Position numbers and translations under genes: made by a program. From NCBI GenBank assembly GCA_963774825.1, contig CAVZGW010000006.1, forward strand, positions 66,124-130,123: a stretch of DNA of 64,000 nt, read 5' to 3'. Of the stretch, positions 9,291 through 58,843 are shown in pieces. Origin of the DNA: an uncultured Actinomycetes bacterium. Its GTDB lineage: Bacteria > Actinomycetota > Actinomycetes > Streptosporangiales > Streptosporangiaceae. The notes under the pieces are model-generated. The model had not been told where the DNA came from and did not search any database. It saw nothing but the letters and a program-made list of their open reading frames with translations. Numbering within the stretch: position 1 is the stretch's first letter; every line of letters starts with the position of its first letter.

Positions 9291-9299
9291 CTGGTGCGC

Positions 9300-9521: not shown

Positions 9522-9887
9522 TTGACGATGACGCTGTATGTGGCCTTGTGCTACTACGACCGGGACCACCACTGGGACTCGGTGCCGGATATGGAGTTCA
9601 CCCCCGAGTACACGGAGTTCGCCCGGCGGGCTACCGAGGCCGGGGTCATGCGCGGCGGTGAAGCCCTGCACCCGGTGACCATGTCGACCACCATCACCGT
9701 CTCGGGCGGCAAGGGCGGCGACGTCCTGGTGGTCGACGGTCCTTACGCTGAGGCGAAGGAGGTCTTGGCCGGGTACTTCCTGCTGGAGGCGGCCGACCTG
9801 GACGAGGCCATCGCGTGGGCGGCGCAGATCCCGGCTGCCTGGCGGGGGAAGATCGAGCTTCGCCCGGTAGCGCCGGCCCACGCCTAG
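9522..9887 (+). CDS. YciI-family (DGPF) protein
   Basis: VVDGPYAEAKEVLAGYFLLEAADLDEAIAWAAQIPAAWRGKIELRPV. It has the usual position upstream of an ECF-type sigma factor. Confidence 0.85.
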   Translation: MTMTLYVALCYYDRDHHWDSVPDMEFTPEYTEFARRATEAGVMRGGEALHPVTMSTTITVSGGKGGDVLVVDGPYAEAKEVLAGYFLLEAADLDEAIAWAAQIPAAWRGKIELRPVAPAHA

Positions 9888-13405: not shown

Positions 13406-13943
13406 CTAAATCTGCAGGGCGCGCCGCACAGCGACCGGCAGTGGCCCGCGAAGCTGCCTGCGCGAGCTGATGTCGAGCTTGGTGAATATCTTGCGCAGGT
13501 GCCATTCGACGGTTCGCGGGCTGATGAACCCACCAGCGGACGGTCCTCGGCTGCCTCGGACAACAGGCTCAGCACCGCCAGGCCAACGAGGAAAAGATCC
13601 GGCGCTGGCCCGGATTGCAGGCCCAGCGCGATCGCCAGCGCACCCCGTTGCGGCCGAGGCAAGAGCGGAAGGCTATCCAGGATCGGGGAGCAGAACTGGT
13701 GCAGAGCAGAGAAGGCCAGCTCCATCTCCGACTCCACGCCTGCGACCCTTACCAGCCGCAGGCCGGCCGCCGCCCGGGCCGTGTAGTCCAGCAGCGCGCT
13801 CTTGCCGATCCCGGGCTCGCCCCGGACCACCATGACGCCGCCGCGCCCATCACGGACCGCGTGCAGGAGCCCGTCGAGCAGCTCACATTCCCGCCGCCGG
13901 TCGAGAAACGTCAGGGACGCACCGGGAAACGGGTCGGGGCCAC
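13406..13943 (-). pseudogene. large ATP-binding LuxR-family regulator with most of the middle deleted
   Basis: N-terminus FLDRRRECELLDGLLHAVRDGRGGVMVVRGEPGIGKSALLDY is fused out of frame to the C-terminal HTH ISPRTVEWHLRKIFTKLDISSRRQL. Confidence 0.65.
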
Positions 13944-14075
13944 TAAAGGCCAGCCCAGCCGCTGCTCGTGATGCTCAACACGCCCCACGAATGGATCATG
14001 CCCAACACACCCCACGAATGGAAGTGTGTATTACTCGATACCGTGTGGCCAGCCTGGAGGTTGTCGATGCCGAGG

Positions 14076-15321
14076 CTAATTGCGCAGTGGCCCGAGGCCC
14101 GCGCGGACCTCTGCCGCGAAGACCTGCGGTTGTTCCCACGCCGCGAAGTGCCCGCCTTTGTCGGGCTTGTTGTAATAGATGAGGTTGTGGTCGGCCTGCT
14201 GCGTCCAGCTCTGCGGGGCCTGGTAGTTCTCGCCGGGGAAGGCGCTCACGGCCGCCGGGACGGAAACTTCGGCGGCGTTGTAGAGGCCGAGCTTGTTCTC
14301 CCAGTACAGGCGAGCCGAGGAGACCGCAGTGTTGGTCAGCCAGTAGAGCGTGATGTTGTCCAGGACGTCGTCTCGGGTGAGGTCGCCCGCGGGTGTCCGT
14401 GGCTGGTGTGGCCGAGCACGGCCGAGGTGACCGGCGCCGCTGGCTGGCCACAGCCGTCGCCGTGGTCAAGCAGCCAGGCGGCGAGGCCGACGGGCGAGTC
14501 CGCTAGTCCGTACAGCGTCTGCGGGCGCGTGCCCATCATGCTGGCGTAGGCGCGCTGCTTCGCATACAAGATGGTCAGCTGCTCGTAGGCGTGCCTCTCG
14601 TCCTCTGACAGACCGGATGGCGGCGGGTCGCCGGACTGCAGTGCCTTGGTCACGTCGGGCGGAACCGTGCCGGGGAAGTTGACATGTATGCCGAGCAACT
14701 CCGGAGGCGCCTGGCGTCCCATGACGTTCGCGACGGCCCCGCCCCAATCGCCGCCTTGCGCCGCGAATCGCCGGTAGCCGAGGCGCTTCATCAGCACGAC
14801 CCAGCCCCCGGGCGATGCGTTCGGGATCCCATCCGGTGTCTTTCGGCTTGGCTGAATACCCGTAGCCCGGCAGCGACGGGATCAGCAGTGGAACGCGTCC
14901 GATGCGCTCGCGCCGTGGGTGGTGGGGTTGGTGAGTGGGCCGATGATCTTGAGCTGCTCGATGATCGAGCCGGGCCACCCGTGCGTGACGACGTGACGAT
15001 GAGTGGCAGCGCCACCCGCGTGCTGCGAGCGAACGTGGATGAAGTGGATGTCGAGCCCGTCAATCTCGGTCACGAACTGCGGCAGGGCGCTCAGCTTCGC
15101 CTCGCATGCGCGCCAGTCGTGATCCCTGGCCCAGTGGGCCGCGAGATCCTGGAGCATCGCCAGGGGGACGCCTTGCGAATCATCGGCGACAGTTCCCTCT
15201 CCGGCCAGCATGTGGCGGCGATACGCGCACGCAGCTCGTCGAGTTCCGCGTCGGCCACCGTGGGGATCGTAAACGGGCGGATCGCTGTCCCGCCCGCCGG
15301 GTCTTCGGCCGTGCCAGACAT
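14076..15321 (-). pseudogene. microsomal-type epoxide hydrolase, at least 3 frameshifts
   Basis: Pieces lie in three frames: IRPFTIPTVADAELDELRARIAATCWPEREL / LPQFVTEIDGLDIHFIHVRSQH..THGWPGS / [16 protein letters not shown]...[21 protein letters not shown] / GGHFAAWEQPQVFAAEVRAGLGPLRN-stop. Confidence 0.8.
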
Positions 15322-15393: not shown

Positions 15394-16073
15394 TCAGGAA
15401 ACGGGCCCGAAGTGGTCGCCCCACAGCTGGTTCGCGGGCTCGCTGCCGGGCTGCCGGTCAGGTGCTGCAGGATGATCGGCGTGAACAGCTGGTGCGCCGG
15501 GTTGCCCAGGATGGACATCGCGAACGGCTGGACGAAGTCGGTGTCCGATCCGTTGATGATCGGGAAGGCGCTGGCCGAGGACGAATCGACGGTGTCGATG
15601 ATCCATACCGTGGTGCCCGGGGCGCTGCACGGCCGCAGGCTCAGGCCCTCGTCCTGGTAGGCGGTGACGGCCACCGCCGTGCACAGCCCGGTGGCGTGGC
15701 CGTACGGCGCGTACTCGATCTGCACCGCGGGCTCCTTACCGTAGTGCTCGTTGACAGCGGCTGAGACCATGCCGTCCGCGTAGTACTGAGAGACCGGCAC
15801 CGTGGCGCCGAGGGGAACGATCAGGTCCTCGGCCGGATTCGAGCTGCTGGCCGGGCGCACTTCGGTCGGCACGCCGCGCACCGGGATCCCCAGCAGCACG
15901 GTCTCCACGAACCCGAGGCTCGTTGGAGTGGCGTACTTGGCGCTGTAGACCTCAATGCAGTTCGCGCCGCACTGCGGAGTGGCCGCGCTCGCCGGCGCTG
16001 CTGCCAGCGTGCTCAGCCCGCCAGCCAGGGTTAGCACCGCCGCGGCGGCGACCAACTTGGGCTTGATTAACAT
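15394..16073 (-). CDS. secreted hypothetical protein (possible 1-nt frameshift near 3' end)
   Basis: Signal peptide: MLIKPKLVAAAAVLTLAGGLSTLAAAPASAATP. The ATG overlaps the stop of the upstream hydrolase. Around 15440 (ggcagcccggcagc) the frame giving ...GSEPANQLWGDHFGPVS-stop at 15394 looks more plausible than the long frame running to 15180. Confidence 0.5.
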
Positions 16074-17029
16074 GACGTGGCTCCTTTCGTGAACCATTCG
16101 CGGTACGGGGCCAGGAACGCGGTCAGCGCCGCCAGGGTCTCCTCGGGAGCCTCCTCGGGGGGATGGTGCCCACAGCCCGGGACGACCAGGGTTTGCACTT
16201 CGTCGGCGGCGAGCTTCATCGTGTCCGCGACCTGGCCGCCCAGGCTCTTCTCGCCGCCAATCCCCAGCACCGGCAGGGTCAGCCGCCGGGTCTTGCGCTG
16301 CTGGTTCTGCGCGATCGTGGCATCGAGCGCGCGGTAGATCGCGAAGCTGGCGTGCAGCGCAAGGGGGTCGGCGGCCAGCATGCCGATGTAAAGCTGGACC
16401 GCGTAGTCCGGCAGTGGCCGAGCGGCCTTGGTGGCGAACTGCCAGCCGAAATAGACCTCTTCCCGGCCGGTGACGAGCTGGTCGTTGACCGCGGCGAGCC
16501 GGTTGAACGCGAAGTGCCACAGCGCGTTGTTCAGGTGCGCGTTGGCGAACAGGGGCGGGGACGGGGACACGCCGGGCAGTGGGGTCTCGGCGACCGCCAG
16601 CCGGTCGACCCGGCCGGGGTGATCGGCGGCCAGCGCGTAGCCGATCCGCATGCCGGTGTCATGGCCGGCCACGGCGAACCGGTCGTGGCTCAGCGCGTCC
16701 ATCAGCGCGACCACGTCGCCGGCCAGCGTGCCGGTGTCATAACCGTCCTCGGGCTTGCCGGACAGCCCGGTGCCGCGCTGGTCGGGCACGATGACCTGGA
16801 AGTTACGCGCCAGCGCCGGCATCACCAGCCGCCAGGCGTACCAGGCCTGGGGCCAGCCGTGCACCAGCAGCGGCGGGCCGTCGCCGCCGGTGACCACGTG
16901 CTGGCGCAGGTCCCCGGTGTCGACGTAGCGGCTGGTGAACGTACTGGCAAACCCGTCCGGCAGGTTTGGTGCCCCCGCAACCGAGCCAGGACCCTCTGGG
17001 ATGTCAGATGAGGTCATGAGGCCCCCCAC
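16067..17029 (-). CDS. alpha/beta hydrolase (haloalkane dehalogenase / epoxide hydrolase-like)
   Basis: PPLLVHGWPQAWYAWRLVMPALARNFQVIVPDQRGTGLSGKP...FAVAGHDTGMRIGYALAADHP...VPGCGHHPPEE. The nucleophile Asp context and the catalytic His are present. Confidence 0.85.
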   Translation of the reverse strand: MGGLMTSSDIPEGPGSVAGAPNLPDGFASTFTSRYVDTGDLRQHVVTGGDGPPLLVHGWPQAWYAWRLVMPALARNFQVIVPDQRGTGLSGKPEDGYDTGTLAGDVVALMDALSHDRFAVAGHDTGMRIGYALAADHPGRVDRLAVAETPLPGVSPSPPLFANAHLNNALWHFAFNRLAAVNDQLVTGREEVYFGWQFATKAARPLPDYAVQLYIGMLAADPLALHASFAIYRALDATIAQNQQRKTRRLTLPVLGIGGEKSLGGQVADTMKLAADEVQTLVVPGCGHHPPEEAPEETLAALTAFLAPYREWFTKGATSC

Positions 17030-18169: not shown

Positions 18170-18425
18170 GATCTGGGCCGGAAGCCGTTGTTCGGGTTCA
18201 ACATGGCCATCATCGGAATGGCTGGTGGCGCAGGATCAAGATTTCGGCGGTTTTCCACGTCTCCTCGCGTCGGGACAGCGGCAGCCACGCGGCTAGCCGC
18301 GTGATCAGGAGGAACACGAACCGCATGCACATGACCGGTGATCATCACGGGTCGGGCGCCGGGCGAGCAAACGTGCTGGTCAGAGCCGTGGACGGGATTC
18401 TCGGCACGCACAGGTGGCGACGCAG
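18170..18425 (-). mobile_element. left-end fragment (terminal repeat plus first ~60 codons) of the rve-type IS
   Basis: Reverse complement of 32862-33060: ...gtgcgtgccgagaatcccgtccacggctctgacc... followed by VFLLITR..WL.LSRREETWKTAEILILRHQ. Confidence 0.55.
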
Positions 18426-20127: not shown

Positions 20128-20274
20128 GCGATCATCCTACCCTAGTAGTTCATACCATGGTCGCAACGTAGCAAGTAGCCGCGGTCAGGTACGTCCGGGC
20201 CGGCGTGGCGGCCGTATATCGCATGGGTGCCGGATCGAGCCTGGGTGCAGCACCAGAGTGCAGCAGCCGGGTTC

Positions 20275-20400
20275 GCTAACGCGTTCGAGGATTCGAACAA
20301 ACAAAGATCTCGTGGTTCCGTGGGAGGCAAAATGGGAGCCATGAACCACACCACTGGGGACAATTCCAGACCACTCAGGACCACGTGTCCGCAGGTCAGC
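20275..20400 (+). repeat. Phe-module leader copy (hairpin plus ~100 nt ending in the tRNA 5' acceptor strand GGTCAGC), truncated by IS701 remnant
   Basis: Aligns with 47751-47875 (gcgttcgaggat[tc]cgaa...atgggagccat.gaccacacc.ctgggga...ttccagaccactcaggacc...gcaggtcagc). Homology ends at 20400. Confidence 0.6.
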
Positions 20401-20459
20401 GAGATACCACCGGCGCTGGACACCCGGGCCGGTCCCGCTGTCCCGGCTGATCGCCATCG

Positions 20460-26505: not shown

Positions 26506-28640
26506 ATGGCCGAGACGGATCTGATCCGCACGCCTGACCAGCGGTTGCGGGTCTTTGTGAGTTCCACGCTGCAGGAACTGGCCGCTGAGCGGCAGGCAGT
26601 GCGGGACGCTGTGACCCGTCTGCGGCTGGTGCCGGTGATGTTCGAGCTGGGCGCCCGGCCACATCCGCCGCGGCAGGTATACCGCTCCTACTTGGCGCAG
26701 AGCCAGGTGTTCGTGGGCGTGTACTGGCAGAGCTACGGCTGGGTCGCGCCGGGGGAGCAGGTATCCGGGCTGGAGGATGAGTACCTGCTGGCGGCGGGGC
26801 TGCCCAGGCTGATCTATGTGAAGTCGCCGGCGCCGGAGCGTGAGTCGCGGCTGGCGGAGATGCTGACCCGGATCAGGGATGACGGTGACGTGTCCTATCA
26901 GCACTTTTCTGCTGCCGCCGGGCTGCAGCGCCTGGTCGAGAACGACCTGGCGGTGCTGCTGAGCGAGCGGTTCGAGAGGGCGCCGGGGCGGGACGGCGCC
27001 GCGGACGGGGCGTCGCTGGCAGGGGCGGTGCCGGTGCCGGCGACGCCGCTTGTGGGCCGCGACGATGACGTTGCGGCGGTGGGCGACCTGGTGCGTGCCG
27101 AGGGGGTGCGCCTGGTCACGCTTACCGGCCCGGGCGGGGTCGGGAAGAGCAGGCTCGCGGTGGACGTCGCGCAGCGGGTGGGTGCGGGCTTTGAGGACGG
27201 GGTGCGGTTTGTTGAGCTCGGCTCGGTCCGGGCGGCCGAGCTGGTGACGGCGGCGATCGCCGGCGCGCTGGGGCTGAGCACCTCGGGCGGCGCGCTGATC
27301 ACCGACCTGAAGTCGTACCTGCGCGCCCGGCGGCTGGTGCTGGTGCTGGACAACTTCGAGCAGGTGATGGGGGCGGCTCCGCTGGTGGCTGAGCTGCTGG
27401 GCGCCGCTCCGGGCGTGGTGGCGCTGGTGACCAGCCGGATGGTGTTGCGGCTCGGCGGTGAGCACGAGTTCCCGGTGCCGCCGCTGCCGGTGCCGCCGAT
27501 CGGGCCGGCGGGGATGCCGCGGAGGTGCAGCTATGCGCCTCGGTGCGCCTGTTCGTCGAGCGCGCCCGCGCCGCGTCCGCGGGTTTCGAGCTGACCAGCG
27601 GGAACGCCGGGGCGGTCGCCGAGATCTGCCGGCGGCTGGACGGGCTGCCGCTGGCCATCGAGCTGGCCGCGGCCAGGGTCAGGCTGCTGCCACCGCAGGC
27701 GCTGCTGGCCCGGCTCGACGACAAGATGGGGCTGCTGACGGGCGGAGCACGCGACCTGCCCGAGCGGCAGCGGACACTGCGGAACACCCTGAACTGGAGC
27801 TTCGACCTGCTGTCCGCCCGCGAGCAGGCGCTATTCGCCCGCCTAGGGGTGTTTGCAGGAACCTTCGACCTGCCCGCCGCAGAGGCCGTCGGCGCCGCCG
27901 GGCCGGCGGGCCCGGGCCGGGCCGGGCACGTCATGGACACGCTTGGCTCGCTGGTGGACAGCAGCTTGGTGCAGCCGCAGATGCGCGACGGCGAGCCGCG
28001 CTTCGGACTGCTGCAGACCATCCGGGAGTACGCGCTGGAGCGCCTGCGCGACGGCGCTGACTGGCGGGAGGCGCACGACCGGCACGCGGCCTACTTCCGG
28101 GCGCTCGCCGAGCCGGCGCCAGCCGAGCTGCAAGGTCCCGGACAGCTGGCGTGGCTGGACCGGCTCGAGACCGAGCACGGCAACCTCGGCGCCGCGATGT
28201 CCTGGCTGGTGGAACAGGACCAGCTCGAGCCGGCGATACAGCTGTCCTGGGCGACATGGAGGTTCTGGTGGCTGCACGGCCACGCCGAGGAACTCGCCTC
28301 CTACGTGGACATCCTGGCCAAGAGCGAGCACCTGCCGCCGCGGCAGCGTGCCCTGGCGCTGAGCGGCACCGGCTTCGGCCTCTTCGCGTCCGGGGACCAG
28401 GCCACCGCGCAGCCGCTCCTGGAGCAGAGCCTGCCGCTGTACCGCCAGGCCGGGGACATGCTGGCGCAGCCACGACGGCAGCCATGCTGGGTCACCTCCT
28501 GGCATTGCAGCACCAGGACGCGCGGGCCAGCGAGCTGCTCGAACAGACGCTCGCCCCGCTGCAGGAGGCCGGCAACGACCGGCTCGCCGGACCGGTGCGT
28601 CTGCAGCACCTGCTGGACGTGGCGCTCGGTGCTCGAGAAT
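26506..28640 (+). pseudogene. DUF4062 - NB-ARC - TPR STAND NTPase, at least 2 frameshifts and 3' truncation by an IS
   Basis: DUF4062: RVFVSSTLQELAAERQAVRDAV..LRLVPVMFELGA...VFVGVYWQSYGW..SGLEDEYLLAAGLPRLIYVK. P-loop: LTGPGGVGKSRLA. Also LVLDNFEQV and GLPLAIELAAARV. TPR-like helices run to about 28635. Frame changes occur near 27505 and near 28460. Confidence 0.8.
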
Positions 28641-28649
28641 CCCTGGAAA

Positions 28650-29342
28650 AGCGCAACCGGCCGCCCAAAGGAACTCACGCTCCGGGAAGCGATCATCATC
28701 GCGAGCGGATATACCCGGCAGAACATCATCCAGGACGTCTGGGCAGAGATCTTCGACATCTCACAGCCGGGAGTTTCCCGGATCATCACCGAGATCACTC
28801 CCCTCATCGAAAAGGCAACCGCAGAATTCCGGCCGGATGCCGAGGAGGCCCAGGCCGCCGCCCGCGGCCAGACCGTCCTGGTAGACGGCTTCCTGGCGCC
28901 ATGCTGGTCCTGGCGCGGGCTACCGGGCCTGTGGTCAGGAAAGCATAAGACGACTGGCTTCAACAGCCAGGTCATATCTGACATGGCGGGCAACGTGATC
29001 TTCGTTTCCGAACCGCTCACCGGACACAACCACGACATGACCGTCCTCAGCGAAACAAAGACCGCCGAGATCATCGCGGAGGCATTCAGCGGCATCGGCG
29101 ACAAGGGATACCAGGGATCGGGCTACATCACGCCGATCAAGAAACCGCAATACAGGGACCTGCTTAAATGGGAGAAGGAGTTCAACGCGGACGTAAGCCG
29201 CCTGCGCGCCCCGGTCGAGCGAGCGATCGCCCACATCAAGTCCTGGCGCATTCTCCACACTGACTACCGGAGACCGCTGGCCACCTACCTCACGTCGTTC
29301 CGGGCCGCCATCGGCCTGTACTTCTTTAAACTGTATTTTTAA
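28650..29342 (+). mobile_element. DDE_Tnp_4 (IS5/Harbinger-like) transposase remnant lacking its N-terminus
   Basis: ISQPGVSRIITEITPLIE...TVLVDGFLAPCW...WSGKHKTTGFNSQVISDMAGNVIFVSEPLTGHNHDM...IGDKGYQGSG...FNADVSRLRAPVERAIAHIKSWRIL. The tail is AT-richer. It is fused in frame to the STAND remnant in the ORF track. Confidence 0.65.
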
Positions 29343-32858: not shown

Positions 32859-32861
32859 AGC

Positions 32862-33725
32862 CTGTGCGTTCCGAGAATTCCGTCCATGGCTCTGACCTGC
32901 AGGTTTGCGCGACCAGCCGTCGGGCCGTGATGATCGCCGATCATGTGCCTGCGGTTTACCTTCCTCCTGATCACGCGGGAGGCTTCATGGCTGCGACTAT
33001 CCCAGCGTGAGGAGACGTGGAAGACCGCCGAGATCTTGATCCTGCGCCACCAGCTCGCGGTCCTGCAGCGGCGGCAGCCGCGCCGCCGGAACCTGAACTG
33101 GGCGGACCGGGCCTTGATCTCGGCCCTGCTCGGCGTAATACCCAAAGCGCGCCGCCACGGGATGTGCCTGCTGGTAGCCACCGACACGATTCTGCGCTGG
33201 GGGAGTGAAGGTAGCGGCATCGACGCCGTGGGAAATTCTGAAGAATGCCGGAATCGACCCGGCGCCGCGGCGGACCGGTCCGACCTGGTCGCAGTTACTG
33301 CGTTCTCAGGCCGACGCGATCCTGGCGTGCGACTTCTTCACGACCGAGCTGCTCGACGGCACCCAGGCCTATGTCCTGGCCGTAATAGAGCACGCGACCC
33401 GCCGCATCCGCATCCTCGGAATCACCCGCATCCAACCGGAGAATGGACCGCCCAGCAGGGCACGCAACCTGATCATGGACCTCGGCGAGCAGGCGCACCT
33501 GGCCGCCGCGAGGTGCTGGACCGCACCCTTGTCTGGAATCAGAGCCATCTGCGGCGGATCCTGCGTGACTACGAGATGCACCACAATCAGCAACGGCCGC
33601 ACCGCTCCCTGCACGGCGCCGCGCCGCTGAAACCGCTACCCGAACCGATCAATCTCGATCAGTACCGCGTCCGAAAACAGGCTCGTGTTGGTGGCCTGAT
33701 CAACGAATATCGCGTGGTTGCATGA
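32862..33725 (+). pseudogene. rve-integrase-type IS copy with terminal repeat, frameshifts and internal deletion
   Basis: FLLITREASWLRLSQREETWKTAEILILRHQLAVLQRRQPRR / GPTWSQLLRSQADAILACDFFTTELLDGTQAYVLAVIEHATRRIRILGIT / HLRRILRDYEMHHNQQRPHRSLHGAAPLKPLPEP...RVGGLINEYRVVA-stop. Confidence 0.75.
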
Positions 33726-33790: not shown

Positions 33791-34967
33791 TAGTGTCGTG
33801 TAATTGAATCTGCTTTACTTTGGCCGATTAGCATGTAATAATAGAAGTATGGATATTACGCTGGAAGAGCGCGCGGAACTTGATTCTATCATTTCTGTTG
33901 GCTACGACGGATCTCTGTCGTCCCGCGCCCAGATGGTGCTGTGGCACGCTGACGGATGTACTTTCGCGGAGATTGCGCGCAGGGCAGGCACGACGAAGCC
34001 TACGGCTTCCCTCTGGATCGGCCGTTACGAGCAGGGCGGGATCGGCGCGCTGGAAGACCGGAGGCCGACGGGAAGGCCACCATCTGTATCCGGGCGGGTG
34101 AGATCGAGAATTATCGCTCTTACAAGGTCGAGCCCTCCGGAGGAGACTGGTCTCACGCACTGGTCCAGTCGTGAGATGGCAAGGTACCTGAAGCGGCATG
34201 AGGGCATCAGCGTGTCCCACAACTTCATCTCCGAGTTGTGGCTGGAGAATGATCTCAGGCCGCACCGGCAAGGCACCTTCAAGATTTCCACGGATCCGGA
34301 CTTCGCTGCGAAGGTTGTCGACGTTGTCGGGTTGTATCTCGACCCGCCCGCCGGTGCGGTGGTGCTCAGCGTGGACGAGAAGACGCAGGTCCAGGCGCTC
34401 TCCAGGACCCAGCCGATGCTCCCGCTCGACTTCGGGAAGGCAGAGAAGAGAACGCACGACTATAAGCGCCATGGTACGACGAACCTGTTCGCCGCGTTGA
34501 ATGTCCTTACCGGCGTGGTAAAAGGCAGGTGCTTCGATCGGCGGCGTACCGGGGAGTTCTTGAGCTTCATGAACGCCGCGATCAGGGGGTATCCGAAGTC
34601 CCGGGAGATCCATGTCATTCTCGATAACCTGTCGACTCACAGCAATCCCGCGGTGGACGAATGGCTGGCGAAGCACCCGAACGTGAAGTTCCACTTTACC
34701 CCGAAGGGCGGCTCGTGGATCAACCAGATCGAGACGTTCTTCGGAATTATCACGCGTCAGGCGATCAGGCGCGGCGACTTCAAGTCAGTCGCTCATCTGA
34801 TCAAGAAGATCAATGACTACATCGAGCACTGGAATGAGGATTCTAGGCCATTTGAGTGGACGGCAACCGCGAGTGAGATCTTGGCGAAGATCGCCCTGCT
34901 TGATCGCGATTACAGGAAGCTTGTCGCCAACAACATCAAATAAAGCACCTTCTATTACGAGACACTA
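33791..34967 (+). mobile_element. intact IS630-family insertion sequence
   Basis: Inverted repeats TAGTGTCGTGTAAT (33791) and ATTACGAGACACTA (34954-34967), each with a terminal TA. A single intact transposase ORF. Low GC relative to the flanks. Confidence 0.85.
33849..34943 (+). CDS. IS630-family transposase
   Basis: HTH: AEIARRAGTTKPTASLWIGRYEQGGIGALEDRRPTGRPP. DDE region: VLSVDEKTQVQAL...HDYKRHGTTNLFAAL...HVILDNLSTH...HFTPKGGSWINQIETFF. Confidence 0.85.
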   Translation: MDITLEERAELDSIISVGYDGSLSSRAQMVLWHADGCTFAEIARRAGTTKPTASLWIGRYEQGGIGALEDRRPTGRPPSVSGRVRSRIIALTRSSPPEETGLTHWSSREMARYLKRHEGISVSHNFISELWLENDLRPHRQGTFKISTDPDFAAKVVDVVGLYLDPPAGAVVLSVDEKTQVQALSRTQPMLPLDFGKAEKRTHDYKRHGTTNLFAALNVLTGVVKGRCFDRRRTGEFLSFMNAAIRGYPKSREIHVILDNLSTHSNPAVDEWLAKHPNVKFHFTPKGGSWINQIETFFGIITRQAIRRGDFKSVAHLIKKINDYIEHWNEDSRPFEWTATASEILAKIALLDRDYRKLVANNIK

Positions 34968-35920: not shown

Positions 35921-36289
35921 TAAATGGGCGATCTGCGCTAGGGGCCGATTCCACATGCAAGGTCAGCTGGTCACGATACGTGAACGCAGCCACTGGGCCG
36001 TCGGCCGTCCGGCAGGTGGATCGTAGATTGCCAGCGCCCGGCCGCGTGCTACCTCGAGGCCCACAATTTACCCACAAGTCCGCGGTCGGGCGCAGCCCCC
36101 GCAGGAAGCCGACAGACGAAACGGAACTATACGGTACTCGGCGGCACGGTCGCCATAATGGCTACAAGACCGGCTGGCCAGCGACAATGCGGATGAGCTG
36201 GGCTTTTAAATGCTCGTCGAACTATGGTTTCAATGGTGATAGGACCCCTGAAAAGCGGAAGGTCGGCGGTTCGACCCGCCCCTTGGTCA
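35921..36289 (+). repeat. Phe-module copy 3 (most complete): leader remnant, GGTCAGC acceptor strand, ~280-nt arm, tRNA-Phe 3' half
   Basis: GGTCAGC at 35961. The arm is collinear with 7451-7722. 36248-36289 reads CTGAAAA-GCGGA-AGGTC-GGCGG-TTCGAC-CCGCC-CCTTGGTCA (3' acceptor strand mutated). The 3' end overlaps the stop codon of the S9 peptidase gene. Confidence 0.65.
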
Positions 36290-38233
36290 AGCCGGTGATC
36301 CTCGGCCATCGGACGCTTCATCGCGAAGCCACCGGTCGAACCATGCACGCGTGCGCCGGAGCAGGTCGAGCTGGTGATTGCGCTCCGCGAATCCGTGTCC
36401 CTCACGCGGGTAGATGACGAGTTCGTGCTCGGCCCCGTACCAGCTGAGCGCGCGGTGGAAGTAGATCGCCTGGCTGACCGGCACGTTGGTGTCGTCCTCG
36501 CCGTGCACGATCAGCACCGGGGTGCGGATCTTCGACGCAAACGAGATCGGGCTCACTTGGTCGTGCGGGTGCGGGCCGCTGCCCTCCCAGCCGCAACTGC
36601 CGCTGAGCTCAGCTTCTAGAGTTCCCCCTTCGCCGGTCGCGACGAGCATCCCCCAGTCACTGATCCCGGCGACCATCATGGCGGCCTTGAACCGGTCGGT
36701 CTGCCCGATCGCCCAGGCTGCCATGAACCCGCCATGGCTGGCACCGCCGATTCCAAGCCGGTCCGGGTCCGCGACCCCCTCGGCAATCAGCAGGTCGATC
36801 CCGCTGATGATGTCGCTCCATTCGCTGCCGCCGACCGAGCGCGCGACCGTCGCCGCGAAATCACGGCCATGACCCACCCCGCCCCGCGGGTTAGGCAGGA
36901 ACACGGCGTATCCCGCAGTCGCGAGCCACTGTCCCGTAGGATGCGGGGCGAGCATGAACTCGTCGGCATACCGGGCATCAGGGCCGCCGTGCACCAATGT
37001 GATGAGCGGGAACGGGCCGTCCGCGCGGTTGCGGCCGGGCGGCAATACGAGCAGGCCGTCGAGGCCGAGGCCGTCCGATGCCCGATAGGACAGGCGTTCT
37101 TGGCTTCCCCATCTGATCGCGCGCAGGGCAGGCCGGGTGTCACTGAGCCGGATGAGCTGGCCTCCGGGCGGTCCGGCATGGACGTTCACCGGCTCATAGG
37201 AGGTACTGGCCAGCGCCGCGATCACCTCGCCGGAACGACACGCGGTGAGCGAGTCCGCCAGGCCATCCCGAGCGGACACGCACCCGAACCGCAGCAGGTC
37301 AGGGTCGAGCCGGTAGATCGCGGTGTCGAGCCCGTCCGCGAACAAGGCCAGCGGCGGGCCGTTCGCGACCTGCGCCAGCTCCGTCGGGCAGACAGCCATG
37401 CCCGCGGTCAGGTCACGATGCACAGCGGCAGCCGCGGAGACGGCGACATCGCAGACGGCGTCGCCGCCGAACGGCTCGGGCATTGCCAGGTAGGCCAGGT
37501 GCCAGCAGCCGTCGGCCTGCCACCAGACCGGTGACCGCGCCTCGGTCCCGATCCGGCCCAGATCACGGGCCGTCTTGGTCTCCAGATCGACCACATGCAA
37601 CTCGCCGGTGTTCACGCCCCGATCCTTCTCCGGACCCGCCCAGCTGATCGCCGCCAGCGCGCCCCCGTCCGGCCGCGCCGCCAGCTCCACGACGTGACGG
37701 TCGCCGAGGCCGTCTACCGTACGCAGCTCGCCTGTGGCCAGGTCAAGCACCCGCAGCCTGCCGCAGCGCAGCTGCTGTCCCCAGACGAACGCGTCGTCGC
37801 GCTCGGCGCGCCGGCGCTTGTCCTCCTCGGTTGGCTCGTCCGTGGCCACCACGGCGACCAGCCGGGCACCCGCAAGCGGCCAGGCATCAGAGATCTCGCC
37901 GCGCCAGTCCGTCAGGACCTCGGCCTCCCCGCCACCGATTCGGACCCGGTACAGCTGACGGGAGCCGGTGCGATCCGACAAGAAAAACACCGACGCCGAA
38001 TCCGGCGCCCAGCGCGGATCAGAATCTGCCGCCATACCCGCGGTCAGCTTCCACGGCGGTGAGCTACCGTCAGCAGCGGCCAGCCAGAGCGCGCACATAC
38101 AACGCTCTTCCCCGCGGCCGACCGGAGCGACGACATACGCAACCCAGCACCCATCTGGCGAGATCACCGGCTGCGACGGCACGGCGCCGTCCACCACCAG
38201 CTCCGCGGCTAGCTCCGGTGCGTCTTCGCTCAT
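36287..38233 (-). CDS. S9-family serine peptidase (prolyl oligopeptidase / acylaminoacyl peptidase type)
   Basis: Beta-propeller N-terminal half. Catalytic Ser motif: IGGASHGGFMAAWAI. Later VHGEDDTNVP and the His region YPREGHGF. Start chosen at MSEDAPE. Confidence 0.9.
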   Translation of the reverse strand: MSEDAPELAAELVVDGAVPSQPVISPDGCWVAYVVAPVGRGEERCMCALWLAAADGSSPPWKLTAGMAADSDPRWAPDSASVFFLSDRTGSRQLYRVRIGGGEAEVLTDWRGEISDAWPLAGARLVAVVATDEPTEEDKRRRAERDDAFVWGQQLRCGRLRVLDLATGELRTVDGLGDRHVVELAARPDGGALAAISWAGPEKDRGVNTGELHVVDLETKTARDLGRIGTEARSPVWWQADGCWHLAYLAMPEPFGGDAVCDVAVSAAAAVHRDLTAGMAVCPTELAQVANGPPLALFADGLDTAIYRLDPDLLRFGCVSARDGLADSLTACRSGEVIAALASTSYEPVNVHAGPPGGQLIRLSDTRPALRAIRWGSQERLSYRASDGLGLDGLLVLPPGRNRADGPFPLITLVHGGPDARYADEFMLAPHPTGQWLATAGYAVFLPNPRGGVGHGRDFAATVARSVGGSEWSDIISGIDLLIAEGVADPDRLGIGGASHGGFMAAWAIGQTDRFKAAMMVAGISDWGMLVATGEGGTLEAELSGSCGWEGSGPHPHDQVSPISFASKIRTPVLIVHGEDDTNVPVSQAIYFHRALSWYGAEHELVIYPREGHGFAERNHQLDLLRRTRAWFDRWLRDEASDGRGSPA

Positions 38234-38759
38234 GCAACGCGCCTTTCCGGCGAACATCCGCACATTTCGTAGCAGAGAGCCTGTCACAGCGGCCTTCTAG
38301 CCGGCGGAGGCGTCCTCCCCGCAGGTTAGGCTGCGCCAGGCGCGCCCGCCCGGCACGGGCGCGCCGCGATGGCTGCGCTGCTGCAGGTCAATCCGGCTCA
38401 CTGGGTAAGTGATCTTAATGCGCGGTCGCAGCGAGGCGCAGGGCCACGAGGGCGATCATGGCGCACAAGATCATGGCGCCGTGGGGTGACTGCCGGGGCG
38501 CGTTGTTGATTGGCGGGCTGGAACGGTGATCATTGCCAGTTGTGTCCGCCGTTCCTGGCCTGCCCTCGGCTGAGGAGCTGTCCGCGCTGCCGGGCCAGCC
38601 CGCCCTGGAACCGGCCGTCCTGGAAGACCTGCTCACCCGCTACCGGGCACTCACCGGCGCCGGGCTCACGGCGAACCTCTACCGGCGCACTGCCACAACG
38701 AAAGACGCCCGCCGCCTGCAGCGCCTGTATGTCTTCTTCGTGCTGGAGGTCCGCAGCCG

Positions 38760-41963: not shown

Positions 41964-42170
41964 ATGGCGATGAATCTCCGGCTCGACGAAGAAGACAGTT
42001 CCCTGCTCAGGGCGCTGGCTGAGGCCGAGCACGTATCGATGCACGAGGCCGTCCTGCGGGCTATCCGCCGCAGTGCCCGTGAGGTAGCGCACACTGAGCG
42101 AGTGCGCGAAGCCACTGCCGAGATGGTGAACCGCTGGGGAGAGGTGCTCGACCGGCTGGGCCGCGCGTGA
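41964..42170 (+). CDS. type II antitoxin (RHH-like), partner of Doc
   Basis: MAMNLRLDEEDSSLLRALAEAEHVSMHEAVLRAIRR. 4-nt overlap with the toxin. Confidence 0.65.
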   Translation: MAMNLRLDEEDSSLLRALAEAEHVSMHEAVLRAIRRSAREVAHTERVREATAEMVNRWGEVLDRLGRA

Positions 42171-42547
42171 ACGACCTCCCCGCCGTCGAGTTCCTGACCC
42201 TGGAGGACATTCTGGGCCTAGTGAACGCGCTGGGCGCCGGGCCGGTGCGCGATCTTGGCCTGCTCGACTCTGCGTGCCACCGTCCGCAGGCCGGATTCTT
42301 CGGGCAGGAGGCATACCCGACCCTGTCCGGCAAGGCAGCTGCCCTGATGCATTCGCTCGCCTGCAACCATGCGCTGGTCGACGGCAACAAGCGGCTCGCG
42401 CTGCTCGCCACAGTTGTGTTCCTGCGTATCAACGGCCACCGTTTGGACCTGACCGACGATGAAGCGTTTGACCTCACCATGTCCGTCGCCGCAAGCCAAC
42501 TGGATGCTGACGGAATCGAGAAGTGCCTCCGTCTGGCGCAAACGTAA
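42167..42547 (+). CDS. doc: Fic/Doc-family toxin (death-on-curing)
   Basis: Doc-type Fic motif HALVDGNKRLALLATVVFL. Size of 126 aa is typical. Confidence 0.85.
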   Translation: MNDLPAVEFLTLEDILGLVNALGAGPVRDLGLLDSACHRPQAGFFGQEAYPTLSGKAAALMHSLACNHALVDGNKRLALLATVVFLRINGHRLDLTDDEAFDLTMSVAASQLDADGIEKCLRLAQT

Positions 42548-42884
42548 CGCGATACCAGTTGTACGCCGCCAGATGAACGCAGTACTTTGCCGCCGACCGA
42601 ACGGTCCCCAGCGGAGTTCACGCTCGCCCGCCACCTCGCCCGCCCCGTGGAAGATCTGCTGACGGTCGCACCCATTGAGCTGGCCCTGACGGAGACGATG
42701 GGGTATTGCTGTGCCGACCCCGCGCCTCGCCTGCCGCACCCCGGGCCGTCCCCAAGGTCCGGCCTTCGGGAGCGATCGGCAGCGGGCTTGGCCCGAGGGC
42801 CGAAAGAAGTCGACGGCGAGCATCGTCGTGGCTTGCGCGTGCAGGAACTGCCGCCAGCTGGTGTCGGTGCGCCGTTTGGGCGCC

Positions 42885-43095
42885 GGCGGTGACGCTCCGG
42901 CGCCTGTACTGCCGGTTCGTCATGGAGGTTGGCAGCCGCTACGTGCACATCGTCGGGGTGACCGCGAACCCGGACTGCCCGTGGACCACGCAGCAGATCC
43001 GCAAGCTCCTGGTGGACATCGGTGACCGGGCCGCGCGATTCCGGTTCCTTATCCGCGATCGCGCCGGGCAGTTCACCGGATCCTTGGATGCATGA
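42885..43095 (+). pseudogene. rve-type IS transposase core fragment
   Basis: [61 protein letters not shown]. Confidence 0.6.
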
Positions 43096-43125
43096 TCACA
43101 CTGCTCCTTTGCTGCATTTTGTCGG

Positions 43126-45352
43126 TTAGAACAGCCCTTGTTGCGGGGCTGGAGGTGCGATACGCAGGCCTTTCTTGCGTCCGGTGCGGAGGTAGACAGC
43201 GCGGATTTCGCCGCGCTTGACGCGTTGCAAGAGGGTCTGGCGTGAGAGGCCGTAAGCATGGGTGGCTTCCAGGGTGGCGAGCCAGCCGTCGGGGGTGTCG
43301 TCGACAAGCAGGGCGCGAATTTCGTCGGTGAGGCGGATCCGCCACGGCGCGCCGGGGGTGAGTTGCTCGCCGTGAATGAATCCGTCGTTCAGCCAGCGGT
43401 GCACGGTGGAGGGGACCAGGCCCAGTTCCCTGGCTGTCTCGGCCACGGTGAGCAGTTCTCCTTCCTGCGGGTCGCGGCTGGGCCGGCGGCCGGGAATGTC
43501 GTTGCGGAACCGCAGTGTCTGGACTCTAGCCGGGGTGTAGGACAGTCCTTTGGCGGTGCGCCGGTGCTGCCGGTTGAGGATGCCGGCGATCTGCGGGTCG
43601 GGGTAGTGGACGGCCAGACGGCGGATCAGCTCGACGGTGTCCTCGTCGGTGCGGAACTTGGGGGGCTGGCGCCTGATCGGCACGGCCAGCTCGCTGATCG
43701 CGCCGCCTTTCCACCGCAGCAGCAGGTCAGCCCGGCCCTGGGTGTCGTCGCGGTGGACGTTGACGGTGACTTCCTCCAGCAGGGTGCGCAGCAGTTGCTT
43801 GCGGTCCTTGTCGGTGGTGGTCGGTGCTGTCCATACCTGTTCCAGGTTGTCGCCCAGGGACAAGATGGCGGCGCGTTCGGCGGCGGTCAGGGTCTTGGGC
43901 CGGGCCTGTTCACGGCGGGCAGAGTTCGGCGCCGGCGTCGGCTAGTTGTCCCAGCGCGGTCTCCCATTCGGCTTCCAGGCCCCGGGCGACCAGCCGGTTT
44001 TCGGGATCCACCGACCGGTAGCGGCGTTCAGCCCTGGTCGCGGCGTAGCGGGCCTGCTCGAGCTGGCGGCGCCACTGGTCCAGCGCGGTATCGTAGCCGT
44101 CTTCGAGCTGCTGGGCAGCGGCCAGGCATGCCTGGAGCGCTGCTGGCGCCAGCGCGGCCAGGAACACGCCGGTCACGGCCGCGTCGATCGCCGAACCGCC
44201 GATGCGCAGGTGTCGTGTGCCGCGTGCGCCGATCGAGCCGGTACCGGTCCCGGTGCAAAAGTAGCCGGGGGTGGATTTGGCCGGCCCGTCGTAGAACACG
44301 GCGAGCCTGCGGCCGCAGATCCCGCAGCTGGCCAGGCCCTGCAGCTGAGCGCTGCCTTCCCGCACCGCGCCGGTGCCCGGCCGGCGGGCTTGCGGCCGGG
44401 TGTTGCCGGCGATGCGCTGCTGGTTGGCCAGGAAGGTCTCCCAGGTGACCCATCCTTGGTGGTGGCCGGTGATGAGTACCTCCCACTGGTCGCGGGGCAT
44501 CTCACGGCGCCGGCTGCGCAGCACCCCGCCGGAGTCAAGGTAGCGTTCGGAGCGGGTGCGGCCGTAGGTGTAGGCACCGGCATAGGCCGGGTTCGTCAAA
44601 GTGGTATGCACCGCGTGATAGGTCGGCGCCACCCAGGTGATCTCGGCGTCCTGCCCGCGCCGGTAGGCGCCTTGCAGCGGCCAGCGCAGGCCCTGATCAC
44701 GCAGCCACAGCCACACCCCGCGGACCGACCCGCACACCGCGAACTGCTCGAACACCGCACCGATCACGCCGGTGACAGCCTCATCGGGGTGCAACCCGAT
44801 CTGTCCGTCGGCCTCGCCCCACACCAGCCCGACCGGCAGCCCGCGGCGCAGCTGGCCGCGGGCGGCCTTGCTGCGGATCCCGCCGTCCAGGCGGGCCCGC
44901 AGCACATGGAGCTCAGCCTCGCTCATGATCCCTTTGAGCCCGAGGACGAGGCGGTCATTAAACAGCCCCGGGTGGTAAACCCCGTCGGCGTCGGCGACCA
45001 GCGTGTCGCACGCCCCGGCCAGATCCAGCAGCCGGTACCACGCCGCATTGTCGCGGACCAGCCGTGAGACCTCCAGCGCCAGGATGATCCCGACCTGTCC
45101 GAGCGCGACCTCAGCGACCAGGCCGTCGAACGCGTCGCGGTGCCCGAGCACCGATCCGGACACGCCCAGGTCACCGTCGACTACCCGGATCGCGCTCTCC
45201 GGCCAGCCCAGCTGACGGGCACGCTCGACCAGGTCATACTGGCGGGCGGTCGACTCCTTGTTGCGCTCGACCTGGGCGAGGGTCGACTGGCGCACGTAGA
45301 TAGCGGCCGACCTGCGGCGATGCGAGACGGTTACCTTGCCGGCCTCATTCAT
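43126..45352 (-). pseudogene. large serine recombinase (~740 aa) split by one frameshift near 43920-43950
   Basis: Resolvase domain: AAIYVRQSTLAQVERNKESTARQ. Recombinase domain. Zn-ribbon: CGICGRRL..FYDG......YFC. Coiled coil. After the shift: RPKTLTAAERAAILSLGDNLEQVWTAPTTTDKDRKQLLRTLLEEV and a C-terminal HTH (LLTVAETARELGLVPSTVHRWL). Confidence 0.85.
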
Positions 45353-47123: not shown

Positions 47124-47378
47124 ATGAGCGGTGCTATGAAAACAGCGATCTCCCTGCCGGAAGACACCTTCCAGCAGGCTACGAAGCAAGCCGCAGAGCT
47201 GGGCGTCAGCCGGTCTGAGTTCTTCGCCCGCGCCGCCCGCAGGTACCTGGACTACCTTGCCGCGCGGTCGGTCACCCAGCAAATCGACGAAGCGCTACAG
47301 GCAGCAGGACCCGACGACACCTCGGCGGCTGCGGCCGCAGCGGGGCGCAGCCGCCTGGCCCGCCAGGACGACTGGTGA
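47124..47378 (+). CDS. type II antitoxin (RHH / MazE-like)
   Basis: MKTAISLPEDTFQQATKQAAELGVSRSEFFARAARRYL. 4-nt overlap with mazF. Confidence 0.7.
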   Translation: MSGAMKTAISLPEDTFQQATKQAAELGVSRSEFFARAARRYLDYLAARSVTQQIDEALQAAGPDDTSAAAAAAGRSRLARQDDW

Positions 47379-47716
47379 TCCAGCGCGGCAGCATCTGGTG
47401 GGCAGATCTCGGCGAGACCCGCGGCAGCAAGCCCGCCAAGCGCCGACCCGTCGTGGTCATCCAGTCCGGCCCGTTCAACGCCAGCCGCCTGAATACCACC
47501 ATCGCCGCCATCATCACCTCTAACACTGGCCTGGCGGCCATGCCCGGCAGCGTCTTCCTGCCCGCCGCGTCCTCGGGCCTGCCCAAAGACTCCGTCGTCA
47601 AGGTCACCGCCCTGATCACCCTCGACAAGACCGCCCTTGACACCGAGACCGGCCAGCTTCCGGCTTCCCTCATGAACGATGTCGACCGAGGTCTGCGCCG
47701 CGTTCTTGGACTCTGA
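47375..47716 (+). CDS. mazF: MazF/PemK-family endoribonuclease toxin
   Basis: RGSIWWADLGETRGSKPAKRRPVVVIQS...TTIAAIITSN......PGSVFLPA..SGLPKDSVVKVTALITLDK. Confidence 0.9.
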   Translation: MIQRGSIWWADLGETRGSKPAKRRPVVVIQSGPFNASRLNTTIAAIITSNTGLAAMPGSVFLPAASSGLPKDSVVKVTALITLDKTALDTETGQLPASLMNDVDRGLRRVLGL

Positions 47717-47750
47717 CCGAAACGTGCCCGCAGCTGCCGGACCTACTCGC

Positions 47751-47868
47751 TAGCGCGTTCGAGGATCCGAATAACAAAAGATCTTGAGGTCGGGGTGGGA
47801 GACTAGATGGGAGCCATCGACCACACCGCTGGGGACTATTCCAGACCACTCAGGACCGTGTTTATGCA
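47751..47868 (+). repeat. Phe-module leader copy (shared with 20275-20393)
   Basis: Begins with the hairpin-forming gcgttcgaggatccgaat, then atgggagccatcgaccacaccgctggggactattccagaccactcaggacc. It starts 35 nt after the mazF stop. Confidence 0.6.
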
Positions 47869-47942
47869 GGTCAGCAACATATCGTCAGGTACTATTTCCC
47901 GCCTGAAAAGCGAAGGTCGGCGGTTCGACCCGCCCCTGACCA
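47869..47942 (+). pseudogene. degenerate tRNA-Phe(GAA)-derived pseudo-tRNA (74 nt)
   Basis: GGTCAGC..CATATCGTCAGGTACTAT..TCCCGC-CTGAAAA-GCGA-AGGTC-GGCGG-TTCGAC-CCGCC-CCTGACC-A. The acceptor (6/7 bp), T stem, variable loop and GAA loop are recognisable. The D stem is lost, the anticodon stem has indels and the T loop is 6 nt. Confidence 0.7.
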
Positions 47943-57320: not shown

Positions 57321-58548
57321 CTAGCGCAGTGATCGGAACGCGGCGCGGACCTCGGCGGAGAACAGCGCCGGCTCCTGCCAGGCGGCGAAGTGGCAGCCCC
57401 GGTCTACCTCGTTGAAGTAGATGAGCTTGGGGTAGGCCCGCTCGGCCCAGCTGCGCGGGGCCTTGTAGATCTCCTTGGGGAAGACGCTCACGGCGGCCGG
57501 GATGTTGACATTGCGGACGCCGAAGAAGTCGAACGTGTTCTCCCAGTACAGCCGGGCCGAGGAAATCGCGGTGCCGGTCAGCCAGTAGAACGTGACGTTG
57601 TCCAGGACCTCGTCCCGGGTCAGGTTGCCGACGGGGTGCCCGCGCGACGGCGTCCGCGATATCGGAGTAGCTGGACACGTCGTGGTTGATCATCCAGGCG
57701 GCCAGCCCGACCGGCGAATCGGCGATCCCGTAGAGCGCCTGCGGCTGGGTGATCATCTCTATCCCGTAGCCGAGGCCCGTCGTGTAGAAGAAGTTCAGCT
57801 GCTCGTACGTGCTCTGCTCCTCAGCGGACAGACCCGACGGCGGCGGGCCGCCGGCCCCCAGGACGTTACGCGCGAGTACCGTGGAGACATCGGCTGGGAC
57901 GACGCCGGCCATGTTGGTGTGCATGCCGATCAGTTCCGGCGGGGCCTGGACGGCCATCACGTCGGTAATGATCGCGCCCCAGTCGCCGCCTTGCGCCACG
58001 AACCGGGTGTAGCCCAGGCGCCTCATCAGCTCGATCCAGGCCCGGGCGATGCGGTCCGGGCCCCAGCCGGTCTCCCGCGGCTTGCCGGAGTACCCGTAGC
58101 CCGGCATCGACGGGATCACCACGTCGAAGGCGTCCGACGCGCTCGCGCCGTGGGCGGTGGGATTGGTGAGCGGGTCGATTACCGCCAGCAGCTCGATGAC
58201 CGAGCCGGGCCACCCGTGGGTGATGATGACCGGCAGCGCGTTCTCATGCTGCGAGCGGACGTGGATGAAGTGGATGTCCAGCCCGTCGATCTCGGTCATG
58301 AAGTGCGGCAGTGCGTTCAGCTTCGCCTCGCACCGGCGCCAGTCGTAATCCGTCGCCCAGTAGCGGGCGAGTTCCTGCATGACCGCCAGCTTCGGGCCCT
58401 GCGAATGATCCGTGACGAGTTCCTGGTCGGGCCAGCGGGTGGCCGCGACGCGCGCGCGCAGCGCCTCCAGTTCCGCCTCGCGGGTGACCGGGATCGTGAA
58501 CGGCCGGACCGCCGTGGCGCCTGCTGAGTTTTCGGTCGGGGCGGACAT
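57321..58548 (-). pseudogene. microsomal-type epoxide hydrolase, single frameshift near 57650
   Basis: VRPFTIPVTREAELEALRARVAATRWPDQE...LPHFMTEIDGLDIHFIHVRSQHENALPVIITHGWPGS...FVAQGGDWGA. After the shift: GHPVGNLTRDEVLDNVTFYWLTGTAISSARLYWEN...GCHFAAWQEPALFSAEVRAAFRSLR-stop. Confidence 0.85.
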
Positions 58549-58843
58549 GTGGGGCTCCTTTCCCCAGAGGTGTGACTACGACACGAAGCCTGCTCGTCTC
58601 GTCTTCGGCCCGCGCCGGTGGAAGACCCTGGGTCTGTTGCCTGGGTTGCCCACTGGGTTGCTCCCCGGGGTGGCGACTCCGCGGATTCTGGTCGCGTCGG
58701 CACGCGCGGGTCAGCGGAAGGCGAATCCGACCAGCTGGCGGAACCCGCGCCGACTATCGGCGCCTCGTTTAGGCCCGAACGTGTTGGTGCTCGAAGGTCC
58801 GTGCAGGCGGTGCGTTGTCGCGGCCGCTTCCCGGCGCTTGAGA

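Follow-up and report, generated by a model that had tools for sequence, protein, structure and literature searches.

The window, by which we mean the whole 64-kb (64,000-nt) stretch of DNA analyzed here, carries three copies of a conserved module, two of which run directly into the 3′ half of a tRNA-Phe gene, together with two copies of an unrelated arm type, one of them joined to a further tRNA-Phe 3′ fragment. Module copy 3 and its tRNA fragment are the subject of this analysis. They abut a gene on the opposite strand, for an S9 prolyl-oligopeptidase, which marks the DNA flanking the copy 3 junction. The features of the locus, and those elsewhere in the window with which it was compared, are as follows.

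705 to 873 (+): module copy 1, truncated on its 5′ side and broken in the anticodon loop (after CCCCTGAA, before CTGCG), with no tRNA 3′ half
7400 to 7419 (+): fragment of a subtype-B/C arm, TAACACAAAGGCAACACAAG, with two AACACA sites 11 bp apart and then TCCGG, fused upstream of copy 2
7447 to 7764 (+): module copy 2, with its P arm at 7447-7722 and an intact tRNA-Phe 3′ fragment at 7723-7764
7534, 7545, 7573, and 7584 (+): candidate arm sites of copy 2, which has its central motif at 7653-7678
7765 to 7960 (+): P′-type arm (“P′A”) 3′ of copy 2, with an inverted CCCACAA pair at 7795-7801 and 7805-7811
20273 to 20406 (+): second copy of the type-D arm, truncated and without a tRNA
35932 to 36247 (+): module copy 3 (type A), candidate int-distal (P) arm of an attP-type site, now in a putative attR junction
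35961 to 35967 (+): GGTCAGC, proposed earlier as a 5′ acceptor strand, an internal and poorly conserved part of the module
36060 to 36077 (+): candidate arm-type sites for the integrase, distal pair, with CCCACAA at both 36060-36066 and 36071-36077, 11 bp apart
36098 to 36115 (+): proximal pair, degenerate in copy 3, with CCCGCAG at 36098-36104 and CCGACAG at 36109-36115
36178 to 36203 (+): central motif CCAGCGACAATGCGGATGAGCTGGGC, 26 bp, in which 5-bp inverted repeats flank a conserved 14-nt spacer
36231 to 36250 (+): core-proximal inverted repeat CAATGG-TGATAGGA-CCCCTG, which extends into the start of the anticodon-loop core
36248 to 36289 (+): displaced tRNA-Phe 3′ fragment, comprising anticodon loop, variable loop, T arm, and a mutated acceptor strand, CCTTGGTCA
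36287 to 38287 (−): S9 prolyl-oligopeptidase gene (Pfam Peptidase_S9, E = 2.5e-47), with a stop codon that overlaps the degenerate end of the tRNA fragment
47747 to 47942 (+): arm of type D, unrelated to the module in repeat families and sequence, joined to another tRNA-Phe 3′ fragment at 47899-47942

The first-pass annotation of this DNA had described the module as conserved in further copies, and all three could be confirmed: they align at 716-913, 7570-7767, and 36095-36292, with 68-86% identity over 198 nt, and extra repeat blocks carry copies 2 and 3 back to ~7450 and ~35977, respectively. Copy 3 is collinear with copy 2 (84-90% identity), with ~30 type-A copies from soil Actinomycetota, and with the right end of a complete element in a relative, locus L191. 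Every module, type-D arm, and tRNA-Phe fragment in the window has the same orientation, on the plus strand.

Directly behind the copy 3 module, positions 36248-36289 read CTGAAAAGCGGAAGGTCGGCGGTTCGACCCGCC and then CCTTGGTCA. Within this fragment, CTGAAAAGCGGAAGGTCGGCGGTTCGA at 36248-36274 matches the tRNA-Phe core without a mismatch (27/27 nt, with 0 such matches expected by chance), and copy 3 does end, as had been proposed, in the anticodon loop, variable loop, and T arm of a tRNA-Phe. The acceptor strand had also been correctly described as mutated where it overlaps the peptidase stop codon (CCTTGGTCA at 36281-36289, ORF at 36287-38287 on the minus strand). The corresponding match in copy 2, at 7723-7749, covers 26 of 27 nt, and this copy retains both an intact T arm and an intact 3′ end, CCTGACCA. 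The 3′ half found here is that of 119 intact tRNA-Phe genes from Streptosporangiaceae and Kribbella; as expected for the arm of an attR or attP site, host-type identity extends from the putative crossover to the 3′ end. ARAGORN called no intact tRNA-Phe gene anywhere in the 64-kb window. A tRNA-Gly(CCC) was called at 59664-59740 (+), where long ORFs overlap on both strands and the Rfam tRNA model has no match at the gathering threshold or at E ≤ 10; the call is probably a false positive.

The sequences that follow the tRNA fragments also recur elsewhere. The P′A arm behind copy 2 is conserved behind differing left arms in L001, L006, L059, L060, and L061, and in L122 it lies directly 3′ of an intact tRNA-Phe; among the loci examined, no integrase follows it. 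A second core-like sequence, TTGAAGCGGAAGGTCA, lies within this arm at 7938-7953 (+), ~190 bp past the first core, and is kept in every copy of the arm (the five loci just named with differing left arms); it could be left over from an earlier junction or serve the integrase as a secondary site. The flank past 47942, behind the type-D arm and its tRNA fragment, recurs behind an intact tRNA-Phe in L091 and behind type-A modules in L003, L004, L005, and others.

Scans with the central motif yielded 47 loci from metagenomes and a further 11 from genomes, among which three sequence subtypes of the module, A, B, and C, were distinguished. The short direct repeats are concentrated in the modules: of 24 CCCACAR matches in the whole 64 kb, 12 fall inside the three copies. 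Copy 2 carries two pairs spaced 11 bp apart (7534/7545 and 7573/7584), and an inverted pair (7795/7805) follows 30-45 bp past the end of its tRNA fragment. In the alignment, the degenerate proximal pair of copy 3 corresponds to CCCACAG/CCCACAG in copy 2 (7573-7579 and 7584-7590); subtypes B and C have AACACG/AACACG there. Across a 40-copy alignment, the four repeat sites all read CCCACAR in subtype A and all read AACACR in subtypes B and C, and such a concerted change at four dispersed repeats is as predicted for co-evolution with a sequence-specific binding protein. Repeated arm-type sites thus appear to be present on both arms and to be distinct from the core, as would be anticipated for an att site.

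The central motif, with 3 matches in the window against 0 expected, is common to subtypes A, B, and C, which otherwise differ, and may bind an accessory protein or a directionality factor. It stands 44 nt from the anticodon loop in every subtype, and the spacer that precedes it is 30, 31, or 40 nt long; by this difference in length, subtype C is one helical turn off subtype A, and the spacing appears to be held at the DNA level. Between the motif and the core, the core-proximal inverted repeat is paired in 86% of cells over 40 copies, and its few two-sided changes are confined to subtypes. On its left the module has a sharp edge, located ~275 nt ahead of the central motif in subtype A and ~315 nt ahead of it in subtype B; on its right it ends at the tRNA core. 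What stands to the right of the core varies among copies. In some there is a full tRNA 3′ half and then one of several unrelated flanks, and at other junctions unrelated DNA begins after CTGA, CTGAAAAG, GCGGAAG, GGTCG, or GGTCGGCAGT. The same core is also found behind other left-arm types that have direct repeats of their own, for example GACGGCAAC, present three times in L060 and L191. In L024, two type-A modules at ~25-420 (−) and ~2030-2480 (+) diverge from one another across ~1.6 kb, and both have a tRNA-Phe 3′ half at the outer end; since simple tandem integration cannot give divergent modules, the DNA between att sites there has likely been inverted.

The headline of the first-pass annotation was that the element is a tRNA-Phe gene with its 5′ third swapped for a long insert, beginning at GGTCAGC and closed by pairing of this heptamer with the CCTGACC of the 3′ acceptor strand. 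Several observations count against that proposal. GGTCAGC had been called the exact complement of CCTGACC; the true complement is GGTCAGG, so that the match is only 6/7. Nor does the element start there, as the heptamer lies ~30 nt inside the conserved module. It is missing from copy 2 and present in roughly half of the ~30 type-A relatives; the remaining relatives read AGTCGGC, GGCTTAC, GGCCGGT, TTTCAGC, or AATCAGC while their 3′ end is still CCTGACCA, and the equivalent position in subtype B reads TCTGTTC. With these 5′ variants opposite a constant CCTGACCA, and with the acceptor strand of copy 3 mutated, the proposed helix is neither conserved nor compensated. The observation behind the headline is largely real, but the interpretation of a tRNA with a swapped 5′ third is not supported.

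A broader form of the same idea is that the module and tRNA fragment together make a transcribed tRNA-like non-coding RNA, comparable to a tmRNA or a tRNA with a large insert and closed by the GGTCAGC/CCTGACC helix. The intact T arm and 3′ acceptor strand of copy 2 are in keeping with this, as is the presence of GGTCAG in about half of type-A copies; against it, the 5′/3′ helix is broken without compensation in at least five independent lineages and is absent from subtype B, and the copy 3 acceptor strand is mutated. The Rfam comparison that had been suggested as a check (tRNA, tmRNA, group I intron, and other families) returned no match across the window at the gathering threshold, and none at E ≤ 10 around copies 2 and 3; no group I intron model matched, and ARAGORN made no tRNA call at the copy 3 fragment. 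A tRNA, tmRNA, or intron was rejected as a candidate on these ARAGORN and Rfam results. Neither a detectable cloverleaf nor an acceptor helix formed from both ends, as a tRNA with an intron or insert should have, was found.

Folding analyses gave a similar picture. Minimum free energies compared with dinucleotide shuffles yielded z-scores of −0.13 for the plus strand of copy 3, +0.51 for its minus strand, and +1.06 for copy 2. RNAalifold, applied to 40 distinct copies from the three subtypes, predicted 10 pairs in 258 columns (−12 kcal/mol, covariation term −0.29). In separate alifold runs, the plus and minus strands had the same energy. Pairs were also counted in three named hairpins across the 40 copies. 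The central CCAGC/GCTGG stem was invariant, since the search pattern had fixed that stem, and the hypervariable hairpin was 54% paired, with a few variants of this stretch forming perfect 5-bp hairpins (ATGAT..ATCAT, ACGAT..ATCGT) that would suit an RNA. The core-proximal repeat is the remaining point in favor of an RNA, in that it is largely paired with few two-sided changes and tolerates G-U on the plus strand. Here the earlier description of the hairpin proved accurate: in copies 1 and 2, CAGGGG-N8-CCYCTG stays paired despite a change from G-C to G-U, and copy 3, which reads CAATGG, has a weakened form. Neither a covariation-backed structure nor stability above background, the hallmarks of a structured non-coding RNA, was seen, and no sigma-70 promoter or intrinsic-terminator consensus was found at the module. 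Given folding indistinguishable from that of shuffled sequence and only 10 pairs from RNAalifold, we consider the transcribed tRNA-like RNA, which had been offered as one of two alternatives, very unlikely. A small protein was rejected too: no frame is open across the copies, and their indels are not multiples of three.

We then turn to integrases. In the window, a Pfam scan of all plausible ORFs found no tyrosine integrase or integrase remnant, and tblastn with six tyrosine recombinases (E ≤ 1e-3 for the L079 integrase and E ≤ 1 for the other five) gave no significant match; the only recombinases or transposases present are a large serine recombinase (43910-45352) and DDE transposases. Among relatives, tyrosine integrase genes stand directly 3′ of the tRNA fragment in L036/L024 and L009 and nearby in L038. 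Intact tRNA-Phe genes with this acceptor stem turned up, in a further scan, in Streptosporangiaceae, Kribbella, and related metagenome-assembled genomes, and a family of tyrosine integrases was found directly 3′ of the intact tRNA-Phe in L079, L115, L148, L153, L180, L182, L184, L185, and L189. The order in L079, L115, L148, L153, L180, and L099 is tRNA, ~25 nt, a conserved hairpin, and then the integrase gene (int), which in L079 encodes 452 aa with the HxxR…Y signature. Within its first 60 nt, int carries AAGATCAACACAAATCCAACACAAC in L079, L115, L153, L182, L184, L185, and L189, and AAGAAGCCCACAAAAAGCCCACAAC in L148, L180, and L099. The two sequences match the two repeat types seen in the modules, flanking AAG included. 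The family of the L079 integrase is abundant in soil metagenomes; of 8000 scored candidates, 1826 proteins reached E ≤ 1e-30.

The hairpin, CCCTCTCACCTGC…GCAGGAAGAGAGGG, is located 25-60 nt 3′ of the tRNA-Phe and before the int start in L148, L180, L115, L153, L079, L182-L185, and L189. Its 3′ strand supplies the ribosome-binding region, and for that reason it could regulate int expression.

Junctions between module and integrase were sought in eight integrase contigs, examined with 10-kb flanks. Five of the eight have a tRNA-Phe followed by int, with no module within 10 kb downstream, and the other three (L183, L187/L188, and L191) show junctions. In L187 and L188, a subtype-C module end runs straight into the core and the tRNA 3′ half, and the hairpin and int come directly after. 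L191 holds a complete 6.2-kb unit consisting of an att site (9838-9880), int, six small genes, a module (15863-16042), and a second att site (16043-16100). Since both of its att sites carry the variant ATTAGCGG, they can be taken as the direct repeats belonging to a single element. The module of L191 is divergent and collinear with the copies in the window, and the P′ sites of L191 (CCACACA/CAACACA) are an inexact match to its P sites (CCCACAG/A). L191 is the only relative in which a module and its cognate integrase were seen within one element; core repeats flanking an int-encoding element beside a regenerated tRNA are present there and not in the window. The genes adjacent to int (encoding a 155-aa protein and DUF2637) have no homologue in the window or at the module loci.

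The feature is, very probably, the attR-type junction of an integrative element that used a tyrosine integrase and had the tRNA-Phe gene as its target, with protein binding, the position of crossover, and past mobility read from the anatomy of the sequence and from its relatives. Of the two alternatives put forward in the first-pass annotation, this corresponds to the recombination junction, with an island arm joined to a tRNA core, and it draws support from the att anatomy, the repeats at the integrase genes, and L191. The free element would carry an attP made up of an int-distal arm (the module, ~320-400 bp), a core that matches tRNA-Phe exactly, starting at the anticodon loop, and, on the int-proximal side, an arm containing the start of int. 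Strand exchange in the anticodon loop would insert the element, the tRNA being rebuilt from the 3′ half that the element brings along beside int, and the original 3′ half being displaced to the far end, directly behind the module. In such a scheme, the 7-bp direct repeats, arranged as two pairs with 11-bp spacing, would serve as arm-type sites for the N-terminal domain of the integrase, and the 26-bp central motif and core-proximal inverted repeat as further protein-binding sites. Repeated integration and decay would then have produced at least three junctions of the module arm type and two of another arm type.

The window itself appears to be a decayed, integrase-less array of such junctions. 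With no tyrosine integrase and no intact tRNA-Phe present, the origin of the array would lie outside the window or have been rearranged. Signs of decay in copy 3 are the two degenerate arm sites, the weakened core-proximal repeat, and the mutated acceptor strand, and copy 1 has lost its core. Copy 2 looks recombination-competent, as it combines a P arm, a core, and a P′ arm with matching repeats; the B/C arm fragment fused directly upstream of this type-A copy indicates that its junction is chimeric or rearranged.

Another account of the same array is that the module and core are the cis-acting end of integrase-less elements that are mobilized in trans and stacked at tRNA-Phe by a resident integrase, giving an integron-like array of small cargo islets. 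The known parallel is found in the CIMEs of the streptococcal ICESt1/ICESt3 system, cis-mobilizable, integrase-less stretches of DNA between att sites that take part in site-specific accretion. The window resembles them in its integrase-less DNA, with functional-looking att sites on either side and apparent accretion at a single type of tRNA site, and differs in that hosts and integrases are unrelated. Consistent with mobilization in trans, the window contains three type-A and two type-D junctions and no tyrosine integrase, the junctions lie close together (6.9 kb apart in the window and 3.3-12 kb apart in contig CAVZKE010000001.1), and well-conserved arms accompany completely different cargo; toxin-antitoxin genes sit just inside the ends (PIN at 6967-7389, RHH plus MazF at 47124-47716), and the copy 2 junction, with its matching arms, seems competent. 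However, the decay of once-autonomous elements gives the same pattern, the core of copy 1 is broken, copy 3 has degenerate sites and a mutated end, and no sign of recent movement is apparent. We regard mobilization in trans as unlikely. Less probable still is the bolder version, in which the module would be a portable cis-acting att cassette by which integrase-less cargo is captured and stacked in trans at tRNA-Phe, forming integron-like arrays in soil Streptosporangiaceae, and in which the 26-bp motif or an arm-to-core RNA could control excision.

Toxin-antitoxin genes were noted beside several of these junctions. The PIN-domain toxin gene (6967-7389, +) lies immediately inside the island end before copy 2, the RHH antitoxin and MazF/PemK toxin genes (47124-47716, +) precede the type-D arm, and a VapBC pair is located 3′ of the P′ arm in L006 and L052.

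Transposases near some relatives raise the question of whether the module is instead the end, outside the coding part, of an insertion sequence from the IS110 family and might encode a guide or bridge RNA, with the tRNA-like part reflecting its target. DEDD_Tnp_IS110/Transposase_20 genes do lie beside modules or att cores in L007, L008, L047, and L183, but they are near these four loci only and in no fixed position: the transposase is upstream, downstream, or opposite in different loci, interrupts the core in L007 and L008, and is missing near most copies, including all three in the window. From their varying position and orientation and from the interrupted cores, the IS110 copies are best taken as secondary insertions. 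The 45-nt identity to tRNA-Phe also suits an att duplication better than a short guide segment. The bridge-RNA reading was rejected on the inconsistent position of the transposase among loci, and we consider an IS110 end hardly probable at all. The transposase genes are at 2560-3441 (−) in L007, 1-867 (+) in L008, 5481-6542 (+) in L047, and 8768-9820 (−) in L183. Unrelated DNA begins inside the anticodon-loop core after CTGAAAAG in L007 and after CTGA in L008 and L029, which share the same junction sequence. The att core may be a preferred IS110 target.

The proposed attR-type junction can be set against known attachment sites. The attP sites of heterobivalent integrases, such as those of lambda, mycobacteriophage L5, and pSAM2, are long and multipartite, with paired direct arm repeats at helical-turn spacing flanking a core that is located in a tRNA anticodon stem-loop. 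The module family appears to follow this general multipartite scheme, although its repeat sequences differ, one P′ pair falls inside the int coding region, and a strictly conserved 26-bp palindromic motif is placed between the arm sites and the core. Host phylum and target gene are shared with the actinomycete elements pMEA100, pSE211, and pMR2, which integrate in tRNA-Phe (PMC2440964, Table 1) and, like the integrative element proposed here, have a tyrosine integrase beside the tRNA and an att identity block over the 3′ part of the tRNA (PMC2440964). Unlike those elements, the window shows neither a replication nor a transfer gene. The integrases beside tRNA-Phe in cultured Streptosporangiaceae and Kribbella are only ~30% identical to the L079-type family linked here. 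A known plasmid or phage att site was rejected, as searches with blastn of PLSDB (plasmids) and INPHARED (phages) returned no match and IMG/VR contained no match to the motif.

A displaced 3′ tDNA fragment is an established marker of island ends, and an anticodon-centered attP is the commonest class (PMC4383910). Islands in Islander likewise have a regenerated tRNA and a displaced 3′ fragment at their ends, with same-orientation fragments denoting tandem arrays (PMC4383910); those arrays require an integrase in each member, whereas the members in the window have none and the intact tRNA lies outside it. Most likely, then, the displaced tRNA fragment behind copy 3 is an ordinary genomic-island feature and not a new RNA, so that a mapped recombination site takes the place of the candidate novel tRNA-like RNA. 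What is new is the previously undescribed family of putative tRNA-Phe attachment arms, in three subtypes, from uncultured soil and peat Actinomycetota. The arms appear linked to an abundant integrase family, and the pairing of arm-repeat sequence (CCCACAR versus AACACR) with integrase type is testable. The family offers practical markers for island boundaries in these genomes and flags the window as a decayed island array, not core chromosome.

Other traces of mobile DNA were observed in the window. Between the copy 3 and type-D junctions, a large serine recombinase with Resolvase and Recombinase domains lies within 43126-45352 (−), adjoined by an HTH_17 protein and accompanied by a Fic/DOC gene; 42167-42547 (+) also belongs to this region, and the whole (42167-45352) looks like a separate mobile element. 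DDE transposase genes are present at 27525-29342 and 33804-34943, and several ORFs in the 12-30 kb interval look fragmentary. An epoxide-hydrolase/alpha-beta-hydrolase region is present as diverged duplicates of 70-85% identity at 13469-15190 and 57324-58966. Finally, a 194-nt inverted repeat joins 18221-18414 with 32861-33054, 14 kb apart.
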